IMG/VR virus record: IMGVR_UViG_3300037420_001136
Coordinates: 27,891-91,890 of that record
DNA from: a virus
Strand: one strand, 5' to 3'
DNA: 64,000 nucleotides
This document shows positions 12,431 through 54,691 of this stretch, piece by piece (position 1 is the first letter of the stretch; each line of letters begins with the position of its first letter). The notes under the pieces are model-generated. The model was not told the DNA's origin, made no database searches, and worked only from the letters and a program-made list of their open reading frames with translations. The translations under genes were made by a program, and so were the position numbers.

Positions 12431-12438
12431 GCATCAGT

Positions 12439-24866: not shown

Positions 24867-25048
24867 GCTAGCGAGCTTGTTTGGAGCAGCTGTCGAGCTG
24901 CCGCCCGTAGGGTAGGCCAAGGGCGGGCAGTTTGGAGGGTTTCCGAAGCCCCGTAGATGCGTCTCTAAGCGCGTCGCCTAGGGCGCGGGTACCTAGGGCA
25001 GCGGCCAGCGTTGCGTAAGGGTCTACGAGCATTCTACGCGCCTCGCTT

Positions 25049-27804: not shown

Positions 27805-27953
27805 TGCTATTTTCCCTTATTGAAGTCCTGCTCAGAGCGACGAACAAGCTCGCGCTCGATCATCTCTGCCGTCGCGTGCGCTCCCAACTCAATTGCTCTG
27901 TGCATCTGCTCACGGAGTTCCTCCGTCGAGCGTTCCGTTATTCCAAAGCGCAC

Positions 27954-51371: not shown

Positions 51372-51649
51372 TGCGTACGATCACTCACAGCAACGGTCTC
51401 ATGTTCTTCGTCGGCATCGTCGCGCTCGCCAGCGGATTTCTGCTCGGCTCGCGCGTCGCGCCTCAGCCGCTCAACAGCGAGCTCGCCGACGCTCAGGTCG
51501 TCGCACAGAACCGCGACGTGCGCTGGATTGCCTACGGCTGCGAGGGCAACTCCACGATCATCGCCCGCGACATGCCGGACGTCATGCAGTGCCGCGAGGC
51601 TCGCCGGCTGAGCGAGGTTCAGTCGTTCGGCGTTCCTCCGCGGTACTGA
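51371..51649 (+). CDS. Small membrane-anchored protein
   Basis: N-terminal TM; TAATG coupling. Confidence 0.55.
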   Translation: MRTITHSNGLMFFVGIVALASGFLLGSRVAPQPLNSELADAQVVAQNRDVRWIAYGCEGNSTIIARDMPDVMQCREARRLSEVQSFGVPPRY

Positions 51650-51800
51650 GTCGCTCGTCGTTTGACGGGACGGATCTGATATACGATCAGCTCCGTCCTC
51701 ATCTCGTCTCTCTGCGTCGTGATCACGTCCGGAGGTAGAGGGCGATCTGGACGAAGATCTAGGCGCTTCTCTGCACTCCTCTCGGCGTCCTTTTGCTGCG

Positions 51801-51838
51801 GCGCCAAACACTCGGTTCACCGCGCCAAACACTCGGTT
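51801..51838 (+). repeat. Tandem 17-bp direct repeat at the left edge of the island
   Basis: GCGCCAAACACTCGGTT at 51801 and 51822 (21-bp period). Confidence 0.85.
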
Positions 51839-51872
51839 TGCCGCAAATCTGGTCCGCGCCGCCGCGCCAAGG

Positions 51873-51901
51873 TTGCCATGCTGCCAAGGTGCGCGCATAT
51901 A
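51873..51901 (+). promoter_or_regulatory. sigma70-like island promoter (no GA)
   Basis: TTGCCA-17-CATATA. Confidence 0.65.
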
Positions 51902-51954
51902 CAGGCCAGCCGTTGCCATTGGGGCAGCGGCCAGCAAGCAAAGGTACAAACAAC

Positions 51955-52473
51955 ATGGCAAACCGTAACAACAGCAAAACCGCCGCCACTGCCAACGCCA
52001 AGGTAGCGCCCGCCTTGCGCGCCGCTGCCATTGTGGCGCGGCACGGCATGGCAGGGCAGGCGCGCGCCATTGCCGCTACTGGCGCAGCCGCCGCTAGCGC
52101 CAAGCGTTACAGCGCGCGCCTTGGCAGCCTTAACCCCGCATTTGCGGCCGCCACCTTTACGCTAACGCCACTTGGCAAACAGGCAGTGGCGGCCAACGGT
52201 TGTATTGGCAGCAAGGGCCAGCCAACAGTTATGGGCTTGTTTGCCGTAGCGTTGGCTAACGCCACAGCGGCCAACAATGGCGCGCCCGCCACAGGGCAGC
52301 AAGTTTGCTTGGCAATGCTTGGCAACCCGCAGCTTATGCAAGCTGCCTTGGCAACTAAGGCAGCAGGCACGCACCTAATACCCGCCAACACAACGGCAAT
52401 GGGCTGGGCGCAGGGCTATGTTAACGGCTTGTGCCGTAGCGCGCACGGCCTAGCCAAAAAGGCACTAGCCTAA
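51955..52473 (+). CDS. Island protein 1: 172 aa, Ala-rich, basic, no Asp/Glu
   Basis: GA-free SD AAAGGT 9 nt before ATG; TAA stop; MGWAQGYVN motif. Confidence 0.75.
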   Translation: MANRNNSKTAATANAKVAPALRAAAIVARHGMAGQARAIAATGAAAASAKRYSARLGSLNPAFAAATFTLTPLGKQAVAANGCIGSKGQPTVMGLFAVALANATAANNGAPATGQQVCLAMLGNPQLMQAALATKAAGTHLIPANTTAMGWAQGYVNGLCRSAHGLAKKALA

Positions 52474-52535
52474 CGCCTAGGGGCGCGGCTAACCGCCGCG
52501 CCCCAACCCGCCACACAAGCAAAAGGTAACGCAAC

Positions 52536-52769
52536 ATGTACACGCCAACACAAGCCAAGCCAGCCGCCGCGCCAACCCGCGCAAGCTACATGCGCGCCGC
52601 CCTGTACCATTACGCGCCCGCGCCCTATGCGCCGCGCCGTTACGGCAAGGTGCGCAGTATGGCCGCAATGCTGGCAAGCTATAGCCCCAAGGTACGCCAA
52701 GCTTACATGGCGCGGCAGTGGGCGCGCATTGCCAACGGCCAAGCGCCTAATTGGCCGCGCAAAAGCTAG
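52536..52769 (+). CDS. Island protein 2: 77 aa, Ala/Arg/Tyr-rich, no Asp/Glu
   Basis: Leader AAGCAAAAGGTAACGCAAC resembles that of protein 1; TAG stop; terminator follows. Confidence 0.7.
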   Translation: MYTPTQAKPAAAPTRASYMRAALYHYAPAPYAPRRYGKVRSMAAMLASYSPKVRQAYMARQWARIANGQAPNWPRKS

Positions 52770-52802
52770 GCCGGTTTTAAGCGCCACACAGGGCCGCAAC
52801 CC

Positions 52803-52836
52803 GCGCCCGCTACCTAGGTAGCGGGCGCTTTGCTTT
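52803..52836 (+). terminator. Intrinsic terminator closing the island operon
   Basis: GCGCCCGCTAC-CTAG-GTAGCGGGCGC-TTTGCTTT. Confidence 0.8.
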
Positions 52837-52986
52837 GCGCCTGTACGTGCACGCTAGGTGGCATAGCGGCCAAGGCGCTATGGTACCTAGGCCCCATATA
52901 CCCCACGCCCACCACGCGGGCCTCAGTCACTGTAGGCGCAGAATTCTCTCGAAAATTCGAAGAATTCTCACTCCTCTCATCGTCAC

Positions 52987-53016
52987 TTGTCAACCGACCT
53001 CCCTCCATGCTACATC
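52987..53016 (+). promoter_or_regulatory. sigma70-like promoter with spacer GA (portal)
   Basis: TTGTCA-accGA(18)-TACATC. Confidence 0.55.
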
Positions 53017-53047
53017 GGCCCCTAACCCTTAGACTGGGACATTCAGC

Positions 53048-54691
53048 TTGGCCGATCCCACCACAAACGCCTACGCTCGTGCTCAGCGAATCGGCACTCC
53101 TCGCTCGCACCTCGCCACGACTCTCGCCATCCCGGGAGCCATGGACCTCGCCCCCGATCTCTCCTACTCAAACAAGTTCGACATGTGGGCGACTCTCCGC
53201 GACTGCTACGACGGAGAATCCACGATCAAGAACGCCGGACAGCAGTATCTCCCGAAGCTGGCCGCGCACAAGGACGGTGACTACGACGTCTACAAGTCGC
53301 GAGCCTACTTCTACAACGCCGTTCGCCGCACCCATCGCGGACTCATGGGAAGTCTTTTCCGGAAGCCAGTCGAGTTCACCCTACCGGCATCTCTCAAGTC
53401 GCGACTCAATCTAAATCGCATCAGCATCGACGCCAAGTCGGCCGCCGACTTCTGCAGGATCCTCGGTCACGAGGTACTCCTCACAGGACGATTCGGCATT
53501 CTGGCCGACTTCAAGGACTCCAACTGGCAGTCGCCGTATCTCGCGGGCTACATCGGCGAGAATATCTTCTCGTGGCGCACGAGGGTCTGGAAGGATCGCG
53601 AGGTAGTCGATCGCGTAGTCCTCCTGGAGCAGGAGCCGATTCTCAGCGACTACGGCTTCACCACTCAGCTGCTCGTTCGCATTCTTCGCCTGGATCCCAA
53701 CTCCGAGGGTACGGATCTCGTCTACAGTCAGACCGAGATTCGTCCCGTGATCAATCCCACGGCGTCGGAGTCCGGTGTTCAGCCGACGGTGACTCAGATT
53801 CCCATCAAGGTGCGCGCCGGTCGCACTCTCAACTACATTCCCTTCGTGTTCGTCAACGCGACCAACACCCGACCAGACGTGGGGCCTGCGCCTCTCGAGG
53901 ACATCGCGACGATCAACATCTCGCACTACCAGAGCACGGCGCATCTGGAGCACGGACGATTCTACGCGGGTATGCCGACCTACGTCACGTCGGGCAGCGC
54001 CTCGGCGCAGATGCCCGGACTTCCCGAGGGGGTCGCGAACCCCTCACCGCTCACGGTCGGCCCCAGCTACGTCTGGGAGCTGGAGGAGAACGCGAAGGCG
54101 TGGCTGCTGGAGTTCAACGGTCACGGGCTGACGTTTCTGGAGAACGCTGTCGACTCGAAGCAGCTCCAGATGCAGTCGCTCGGTGGTCGCCTCATCTCCT
54201 CGACCCGCAGAGCCGCTGCCCTGAGTGACGAGGCATGGCAGCTTCTCGAGACGGGGGATGAGGCGACCCTGATGGACGTGGCGTGCACGGCCGACGAGGC
54301 GATGAGCACTGCGATCGCCTACATGGGCGACATCATGGGGCAGATTCCAGACATGAGCGATCACGGCGTGGTCGTGGAGTTCAACAAGGAGTTTGTTCGC
54401 TCGGAGCTCACGGCTCGCGAGCTTCGTGCTCTTCAGGCTCTTCGCGAGCGCGGTCACATTCCCGAGGACGTGATGTACTACGCGCTGCGGGAGGTCGGGG
54501 TCATCCCGATCGAGTACACGCTGGAGGACTTCAAGGCGCTGATGGCTCGGAAGGATCAGCAGTACGAGCCGCCGCTGCCGCCCGCCTCGGGAGGCCTCGA
54601 CACAGGACCGGCCGGAGGCCCCACTCCGGGAGTTCGGCCTCAGACTAAGCCTAATCCTGCAAACAATCCCTCTGGAGGAAGTCCGGACTAA
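53048..54691 (+). CDS. Portal protein (DUF4055 type)
   Basis: W...RDCYDGE..IK.AG..YLP.....Y..Y..RA.FYN...RT..GL.G..FRKP; IPFVF; PL.DIA.INISHYQ..A.LEHG. Confidence 0.88.
   Translation: MADPTTNAYARAQRIGTPRSHLATTLAIPGAMDLAPDLSYSNKFDMWATLRDCYDGESTIKNAGQQYLPKLAAHKDGDYDVYKSRAYFYNAVRRTHRGLMGSLFRKPVEFTLPASLKSRLNLNRISIDAKSAADFCRILGHEVLLTGRFGILADFKDSNWQSPYLAGYIGENIFSWRTRVWKDREVVDRVVLLEQEPILSDYGFTTQLLVRILRLDPNSEGTDLVYSQTEIRPVINPTASESGVQPTVTQIPIKVRAGRTLNYIPFVFVNATNTRPDVGPAPLEDIATINISHYQSTAHLEHGRFYAGMPTYVTSGSASAQMPGLPEGVANPSPLTVGPSYVWELEENAKAWLLEFNGHGLTFLENAVDSKQLQMQSLGGRLISSTRRAAALSDEAWQLLETGDEATLMDVACTADEAMSTAIAYMGDIMGQIPDMSDHGVVVEFNKEFVRSELTARELRALQALRERGHIPEDVMYYALREVGVIPIEYTLEDFKALMARKDQQYEPPLPPASGGLDTGPAGGPTPGVRPQTKPNPANNPSGGSPD

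Follow-up and report, generated by a model that had tools for sequence, protein, structure and literature searches.

A phage transcription unit kept free of GA and TC dinucleotides, likely on account of a thymidine mark in the TC context

The window analyzed here is a 64-kb stretch (positions 27891 to 91890) of the genome of an uncultured soil phage (G000, 91,890 bp; IMG/VR record IMGVR_UViG_3300037420_001136), the assembly of which is circular with a 127-bp end overlap. Beside the portal gene, it carries a small cassette—one transcription unit with two open reading frames (ORFs)—that contains neither GA nor TC over more than 1 kb. Selection at the DNA level acts against TC and GA over this whole transcription unit, and the likely cause of the island is a thymidine mark in the TC context. 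The cassette consists of the following parts, with coordinates here and below given as positions in the window unless marked as genome or locus:

51855..52922, both strands: GA/TC-free island, 1068 bp without GA and without TC, the only gap of such length in the genome
51873..51901, + strand: predicted promoter, TTGCCA (51873-78), 17 nt, CATATA (51896-901), from sequence reading
51955..52473, + strand: ORF1, 172 aa, Ala/Gly/Thr-rich, basic, without Asp and Glu
52480..52504, + strand: GC-rich intercistronic hairpin (GGGGCGCGG...CCGCGCCCC), from sequence reading
52536..52769, + strand: ORF2, 77 aa, basic, Tyr/Pro/Arg-rich, with a HYAPAPYAPRRYG motif, without Asp and Glu
52803..52838, + strand: predicted intrinsic terminator, 11-bp stem (52803-52828) followed by TTTGCTTTGC, GA/TC-free
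52880..52927, + strand: conserved non-coding 3' element, invariant ATGGTACC, about 9 nt, (T/G)(A/G)TACC, invariant GCCTCAGT

The GA/TC gap has a length of 1070 bp and is bounded by TC at 51853-54 and TC at 52923-24. Since neither GA nor TC occurs on the + strand, neither step occurs on either strand. The absence of both steps across 51855-52922 had been reported in an initial annotation made from the sequence, and reading of the sequence together with the gap count confirms it. The second-longest GA/TC gap in the whole genome measures 54 bp, which is the chance level at 16.7 sites per 100 bp. Among the dinucleotide pairs, the outlier gap is exclusive to GA/TC; the maximum for any other is 338 bp in the whole genome and belongs to TA. 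From the composition of the island, 67 GA and 53 TC—about 120 sites, in line with the more than 100 predicted in the initial annotation—are expected and none is observed, and the remaining 14 dinucleotides all occur in it. Elsewhere in the genome, TC is enriched, with a ratio of observed to expected counts (O/E) of 1.36, and 39% of the thymines of the genome have C as the next base.

The absence of sites goes in hand with a restricted codon usage. Upon back-translation with the codon usage of the genome, with the Asp/Glu-free proteins taken as given, ORF1 carries 43.5 +/- 4.6 sites (minimum 27 in 2000 runs) and ORF2 17.0 +/- 3.1 sites (minimum 8 in 2000 runs), against an observed number of 0 in both. 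The codons CGA, AGA, GGA, CTC, and GTC are unused in the cassette ORFs. The initial annotation had also listed a set of features by which the unit keeps to the rule, and these hold throughout: both proteins lack Asp and Glu; Ser is encoded by AGC or AGT only, Phe by TTT, and Ile by ATT or ATA; the stops are TAA and TAG; AAAGGT stands 9 nt ahead of each ATG in place of an AGGAG-type Shine-Dalgarno sequence; the promoter TTGCCA-17-CATATA is present; and the terminator is free of GA, its stem and T tract being free of TC as well.

The site-free state extends beyond the functional parts, with margins of 18 bp ahead of the -35 box and approximately 95 bp past the terminator. Both edges had been described as abrupt. 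This applies to the right, portal-side edge, where the adjoining 60 bp lie at the 99th percentile of GA/TC density (94th-99th across G000 and its relatives G001 and G002), and does not apply to the left, promoter-side edge, which is soft, with five GA/TC sites in the 60 bp preceding the island. Because the whole unit and its margins are site-free on both strands, the protected object is probably the transcription unit as DNA rather than the mRNA or a mere binding site.

Islands of the same kind occur in relatives. The related loci comprise three IMG/VR contigs and eight soil-metagenome contigs, and in 11 of these 11 (L003-L013) a GA/TC-free island of 1.0-1.45 kb surrounds the ORF1 homologue; the longest GA/TC gap elsewhere in these loci is about 50 bp. 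The eight distinct islands amount to 9,149 bp and contain three sites in all, each of them a silent NNT/CNN codon junction. The layout is constant—promoter, ORF1, ORF2, terminator, and the conserved 3' element—and only in the most distant locus pair is the place of ORF2 taken by a different acid-free ORF of 80 aa. In the closer relatives, the island lies directly upstream of the portal gene. The site-free state is kept among relatives at 56-62% protein identity. Conservation across relatives implies that the island is under selection, and the strong DNA-level selection on the whole unit proposed in the initial annotation is borne out, since promoter, spacers, terminator, and the margin beyond it are site-free and are kept in relatives. 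The dinucleotide count over the full genome and its relatives, suggested in the same place, leaves the GA/TC gap as the only outlier and recovers the islands in the relatives.

Locus scans of viral contigs (queries P0114 and P0116) and of GTDB genomes (queries A1 and P0113) yielded no related locus. The stretch is contained in 11 soil or rhizosphere DNA sequencing runs, and no RNA run is listed among the runs containing it. In the independent run X7, strain variants are present within the island, none of which makes a GA or a TC.

The genome encodes a thymidine-modification cluster composed of a thymidylate synthase (TS) homologue, an HD hydrolase, a PF18723 protein, and a TAGT GT-A glycosyltransferase; the cluster with the first three adjoins the DNA polymerase gene. 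Three of its members are given in locus coordinates:

L002:4993-6057: TS homologue, dUMP-hydroxymethylase-like, PF00303 E 3.5e-21, phrog_5131 E 5e-92, 36% identity over 346 aa to gp58 of phage M6
L002:2315-3208 (genome 22315-23208): PF18723 protein (HMUDK_hel), E 4e-43 over the full length, 33% identity to M6 gp55
L002:3938-4753: TAGT-family GT-A glycosyltransferase, PF20691 48.2 bits (cut-off 27.5), phrog_842 E 3.7e-39

The TS homologue is a predicted dUMP hydroxymethylase, an assignment in which homology does not separate it from a methylase. The PF18723 protein, whose GenBank homologues are named aGPT-Pplase clade 1, is homologous to M6 gp55 rather than to gp54, the P-loop kinase of M6. The glycosyltransferase is of the base-J JGT-like GT-A kind, and its substrate would presumably be 5-hydroxymethyluracil (hmU) in DNA. 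Of the relatives, G001 and G002 offer sufficient sequence for comparison, and in both of them the four genes recur in unchanged order.

Searches for further modification enzymes remained without result. For the P-loop kinase of 5-hydroxymethyldeoxyuridine (5-hmdU), the nucleoside found in the DNA made by M6, tblastn with M6 gp54 gave only a trivial Walker-A match in a Dda-like helicase, and a Walker-A scan of all ORFs of the genome, which a very remote kinase would escape, found no small kinase. For aGPT-Pplase2 and the tailoring enzymes dependent on pyridoxal phosphate or radical S-adenosylmethionine (PLP/rSAM), tblastn with M6 gp51, gp52, and gp53 gave nothing better than E 0.013. Because the kinase and the transferase are absent, the gene set is related to the characterized 5-hmdU pathway but is not a member of it. 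A tRNA-guanine transglycosylase (TGT) or DpdA was sought by PF01702, which has no match in the genome and matched 14 of 14 control genomes. DNA methyltransferases of the N6/N4, Dam, and C5 types were not found in the genome either. As judged by gene content, thymidine modification is the sole recognizable DNA-marking system of this genome. Since the only recognizable DNA-modification genes act on thymidine, the marked base is more likely the T in 5'-TC-3' than the G in GA.

Restriction-site palindromes supply further evidence that does not depend on the island. Under a mark that protects TC, there would be no need to avoid restriction sites with TC or GA, whereas sites without them would have to be avoided. 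Among the 6-bp palindromes, 16 contain GA/TC and 48 do not; expected counts were derived from a maximal-order Markov model, and the two classes were compared by the Mann-Whitney test:

G000: O/E with GA/TC 0.87, without 0.68, p 0.026
G001: O/E with GA/TC 0.97, without 0.64, p 0.0001
G002: O/E with GA/TC 1.01, without 0.61, p 0.001
G003: O/E with GA/TC 1.02, without 0.61, p 0.001
Lambda (negative control): O/E with GA/TC 0.71, without 0.63, p 0.48

The 20 most avoided palindromes of G000 are all free of GA/TC. Lambda features no class difference, neither for GA/TC nor for three other steps tested. In M6, which serves as the positive control, CA/TG palindromes are spared (0.79 versus 0.36) and GA/TC palindromes are strongly avoided (0.23), which agrees with the TG activity reported for the M6 kinase (PMC6449724). 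Indirectly, these statistics support the view that the step protected in this clade is GA/TC. Of the GA/TC-context mark put forward in the initial annotation, the context is therefore indirectly supported by palindrome statistics with controls; the 7-deazaguanine chemistry that it proposed is not.

Thymidine hypermodification from 5-hmdU in a dinucleotide context is known from the phages M6, ViI, phiW-14, SP10, and SH-Ab 15599 (PMC5889632, PMC8989533, PMC6449724, PMC13458397). The conversion of 5-hmdU takes place in sequence-specific contexts (PMC8989533); the restriction-resistant sites of M6, ViI, and phiW-14 have TG or TC in common (PMC6449724), and the mark of SH-Ab 15599 is at TG (PMC13458397). 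A mark on T before one particular base is thus a known style of thymidine hypermodification, and such a mark would be shared by the phage of the window. Further likenesses are the clustering of the TS-like dUMP hydroxymethylase homologue, the HD hydrolase, and the M6-gp55-like PF18723 protein, and the fraction of thymines in the context, which at 39% falls within the published replacement of 30-50%. The differences are that the phage of the window lacks the P-loop kinase and aGPT-Pplase2 and has a TAGT/GT-A glycosyltransferase instead, that its context would be TC only, and that M6 has no site-free segment. No published description of modification-free islands, or of segments kept free of a target step, was found in open-access text.

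In the favored explanation, the phage's own modification system acts on thymidine after replication, probably at the T in the TC context, with a glycosylated 5-hmdU derivative as the probable mark. Of the thymines elsewhere, about 39% would then be modified, while the cassette, both strands of which lack TC, would carry no mark and stay ordinary DNA. As such, it would remain usable, with the unmodified host RNA polymerase transcribing it from the incoming genome, and it would escape anything that senses the modified base; the two small basic proteins would be made first, or at all times. That the TC-free unit stays unmarked by a TC-context thymidine modification, and is hence readable and untargeted, is on balance probable. 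We infer the modified base, the identity of the mark, and the reason for the escape of the cassette. An effect of such a mark on transcription would have precedent: phosphorylation of hmU in the template brings transcription by Escherichia coli RNA polymerase down to 10% of the level on hmU-DNA, and bulky groups in the major groove inhibit transcription (PMC6457204).

The promoters of the genome are of interest in this respect. Approximately 16 other phage promoters share the pattern CTTG-N6-GA(G/A)(C/G)-N10-(-10) (e.g. at 12431, 15604, 19038, 23680, and 27215). The island promoter features the same layout but has TGCC where the GA box stands. It is not listed by a strict sigma-70 scan, and its GTTGCCA and CATAT-like elements are kept in L003, L006, and L007. 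The GA box of the phage promoters is a TC on the opposite strand at a fixed position of the spacer. Were TC the marked context, every phage promoter but that of the island would have a modified T at the GA box. A far-reaching version of the favored explanation holds that the TC-specific hypermodification locks transcription or DNA access across the genome: the TC-free cassette would be the sole unit readable from virion DNA, and its acid-free proteins would license the host RNA polymerase at the approximately 16 GA-box promoters as a self-imposed epigenetic ignition switch. This version is rather unlikely; if it were true, the restricted amino-acid alphabet would be its footprint.

Several points weigh against a TC-context mark as the cause of the island. 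Modification of the virion DNA and its confinement to TC are predictions from sequence. The cluster has neither the P-loop 5-hmdU kinase nor aGPT-Pplase2, the defining enzymes of the characterized pathway. TC abounds in the remaining genome, the early genes and those for replication included; since these must be transcribed from incoming DNA, the mark can be no absolute block to RNA polymerase. M6 has a context-specific mark and no dinucleotide-free island, which may be explained by the fact that all three start codons contain TG, making a TG-free ORF impossible. The cassette lies beside the portal gene rather than in a region recognizable as early. A single clade underlies the palindrome test, and within it G002 and G003 are near-identical. 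Last, the island holds 23 GA/TC-less palindromes per kb versus 6 per kb elsewhere; this palindrome richness leaves it exposed to ordinary restriction and weighs against a classical anti-restriction role.

Segments that dispense with sites are known from other phages. The first-step-transfer (FST), or pre-early, region of T5 has no EcoRI sites, and the products of the T5 FST region and of the leading early region of T7 (ocr) are thought to be needed before the remaining genome is exposed or usable. The cassette resembles these regions in that it is small and self-contained, bears expression signals of the host type, and is free of the relevant sites. It differs in that T5 and T7 avoid the 6-bp site of a host enzyme, whereas here a 2-bp step is avoided, which is probably the context of the phage's own mark, and two amino acids are given up for it. 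Those regions lie at the leading terminus; the cassette is placed beside the portal gene. The relatives of TerL in this genome are alphaproteobacterial siphophages and include phiCbK-like phages with terminal repeats; since terminal-repeat phages are among them, fixed ends—and with them a fixed leading genome end—are possible. With restriction-site avoidance in general, the island shares the removal of short words from coding sequence through synonymous choices, but here the avoidance is local and absolute, concerns a dinucleotide, and overrides protein composition, and the avoided step is enriched in the rest of the genome (see the O/E of TC above). In T4, the appropriation of sigma by MotA/AsiA and the Alc protein couple transcription to the modification state of the DNA. 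As small early proteins that retune the host RNA polymerase, they might by analogy be a model for a DNA-binding ORF1 and a small ORF2; similarity in sequence or fold to them was not found.

The two proteins of the cassette are acid-free as families. For ORF1, 78 metagenomic homologues were found (47-78% identity), of which 77 contain neither Asp nor Glu and one contains a single Glu; the 24 homologues of ORF2 (56-83% identity) are without Asp and Glu throughout. A profile search of 1.84 billion proteins yielded an ORF1 family with 16 representatives, none of them annotated, which includes more distant acid-free members. The four most distant members of the family (P0111, P0112, P0113, and P0116) have 5-16 Asp/Glu residues. 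The ORF1 fold hence predates the recoding, and these relatives would show the role of the protein in phages without recoding. A paralogue of ORF1 or ORF2 with normal composition was not found in G000, G001, or G002. Between G000 and G001, identity is 60% for ORF1 and 77% for ORF2, compared with 86-91% for the major capsid protein (MCP), PolA, and TerL.

The AlphaFold2 model of ORF1, computed with 78 sequences, has a predicted local distance difference test score (pLDDT) of 91.5 and a predicted template modeling score (pTM) of 0.85. ORF1 is thus a natural protein without acidic residues that is predicted to fold with confidence. For ORF2, the pLDDT is 62.7, and the C-terminal helix alone is confident. 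Neither protein has a match in Pfam or PHROG. ORF1 gave nothing below E 0.9 in Foldseek against PDB and BFVD and no usable match in the ESM Atlas; a tblastn search for it in cultured phages, covering 50,697 phage records, was negative. For residues 87-172 of ORF1, the best rows of VIA-align are all winged-helix domains (MCM, Cdc6/ORC, SAMD1, and KAT6A) with weak Z scores of 3.9-4.4, so that the C-terminal half of the modeled structure appears weakly winged-helix-like. ORF1 was also considered as a small terminase and rejected, TerL being 44 kb away.

Of the alternatives to the favored explanation, escape from a defense that senses modification retains the premise that TC is the modified context and differs in the reason for the island. 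Nucleases of type IV or the END type would attack the marked genome; the unmarked cassette would be spared and would encode their inhibitors, acting early or to the aid of co-infecting kin. Nucleases of the END type respond to a range of hypermodifications early in infection, and small phage proteins that are required for plaque formation block them (PMC12191111). ORF1 and ORF2 evolve faster than the core genes, which is typical of host-interaction genes, and site-free strands with margins would suit a sensor of double-stranded DNA that cuts near the modified base. However, cuts elsewhere in the genome would still be lethal, so that a benefit requires stepwise DNA entry or cooperation of kin, both hypothetical, and the proteins resemble no known protein in the Pfam and PHROG searches, nor ORF1 any in Foldseek or the ESM Atlas. 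As the reason for the island, defense escape is therefore considered unlikely, although it deserves more weight than the alternatives that follow.

A still less probable explanation is that the cassette and the 3' element form a hub of protein access, unmodified so that host factors, or ORF1 if it is a winged-helix protein, can bind; ORF1 might then regulate late genes. The 3' element—ATGGTACC, about 9 nt, TATACC, and GCCTCAGT—lies approximately 90 bp upstream of the portal promoter and is better conserved than the ORFs, GGTACC/CCTAGG motifs are also found at several other promoters, and the best VIA-align matches of ORF1 are all winged-helix DNA-binding domains. Yet a binding site takes tens of base pairs and not 1.07 kb with two recoded ORFs, and the winged-helix match is weak (Z 4.4), DNA binding being a prediction from the model.

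A reader enzyme specific for TC/GA, for instance a nuclease or deaminase of phage or host that hits unmodified TC, is very unlikely. The cassette would be immune to it even before modification, as nascent DNA or as a bootstrap gene. Activities with this preference exist, T4 endonuclease IV acting at dT-dC and the DddA-type deaminase of double-stranded DNA at TC, and the symmetry of both strands fits a reader at the DNA level. No such enzyme was identified in the genome, however, and the reading leaves unexplained why this unit alone needs immunity among TC-rich genes.

The chemistry proposed in the initial annotation, a 7-deazaguanine of the dPreQ0 type at GA, is hardly tenable. Its precedent is phage CAjan, with preQ0 reported at GA and GGC motifs (PMC7544227). 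The absence of TGT/DpdA—with PF01702 matched in every control genome and unmatched here—removes this precedent, and genes of the thymidine pathway are found instead. An assembly chimera, a synthetic insert, or chance is refuted by the relatives, as diverged versions occupy the same genomic place in independent IMG/VR and soil-metagenome contigs from several projects, the stretch recurs in 11 runs, and the variants of run X7 create no GA or TC.

If the TC-context explanation is true, the context of a hypermodification can be read from sequence in two ways, by a site-free island and by unavoided palindromes, and could be predicted for thousands of uncultured phages; contexts of thymidine hypermodification have so far mostly been inferred from restriction digests. 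The cost of hypermodification would be high enough to forgo two amino acids in two proteins across a family diverged to about 50% identity, which would point to an unstudied conflict between the marking of DNA and gene expression or the sensing by defense systems. ORF1 and ORF2 would be candidates for new pioneer or anti-defense functions, and the design of the cassette may serve the engineering of genes that are to be kept unmodified in phages with modified DNA.

The flanks of the cassette feature the following elements:

51801..51838, + strand: GCGCCAAACACTCGGTT occurring twice at a 21-bp period, just ahead of the island and within the GA/TC-sparse transition zone; conservation among relatives is poor (alignment A3)
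52986..53015, + strand: predicted phage-type promoter serving the portal/structural operon, with the sequence CTTG-TCAACC-GACC-N10-CTACAT and GA/TC-dense surroundings
53048..54691, + strand: portal protein gene, phrog_145 E 6e-90, DUF4055, the first gene of normal composition past the island

An Rfam scan of 51400-53300 gave nothing near any threshold. The stem and T tract of the terminator are kept in seven loci, with substitutions that preserve pairing. The conservation of the 3' element exceeds that of the ORFs (alignments A4 and A7; L003, L004, L007, L009, L011, and L013), and the island ends inside its GCCTCAGT, where the first TC occurs. No convincing RNA structure was found for this element, the terminator alone being supported; it is possibly a candidate protein-binding site with two half-sites, as judged by its sequence. 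Between the island and the portal promoter, the GA/TC-dense segment 52940-52985 contains three GAATTC/AAATTC repeats (GAATTCTCTCGAAAATTCGAAGAATTCTC), the AAAATTC core of which is kept in relatives. In G002, the island and the portal gene are separated by an extra ORF of 195 aa and normal composition (L004:5271-5858), which the genome of the window lacks.

GGTACC and CCTAGG cluster at the -10/+1 region of some phage promoters and in one intergenic spacer, at genome positions 33880, 36940, 40283, 51538, and 52867-52882 (window 5990, 9050, 12393, 23648, and 24977-24992). These sites may represent a second promoter class or a family of operators. CCTAGG is over-represented, with 21 sites and an O/E of 1.54, though most palindromes without GA/TC are avoided.

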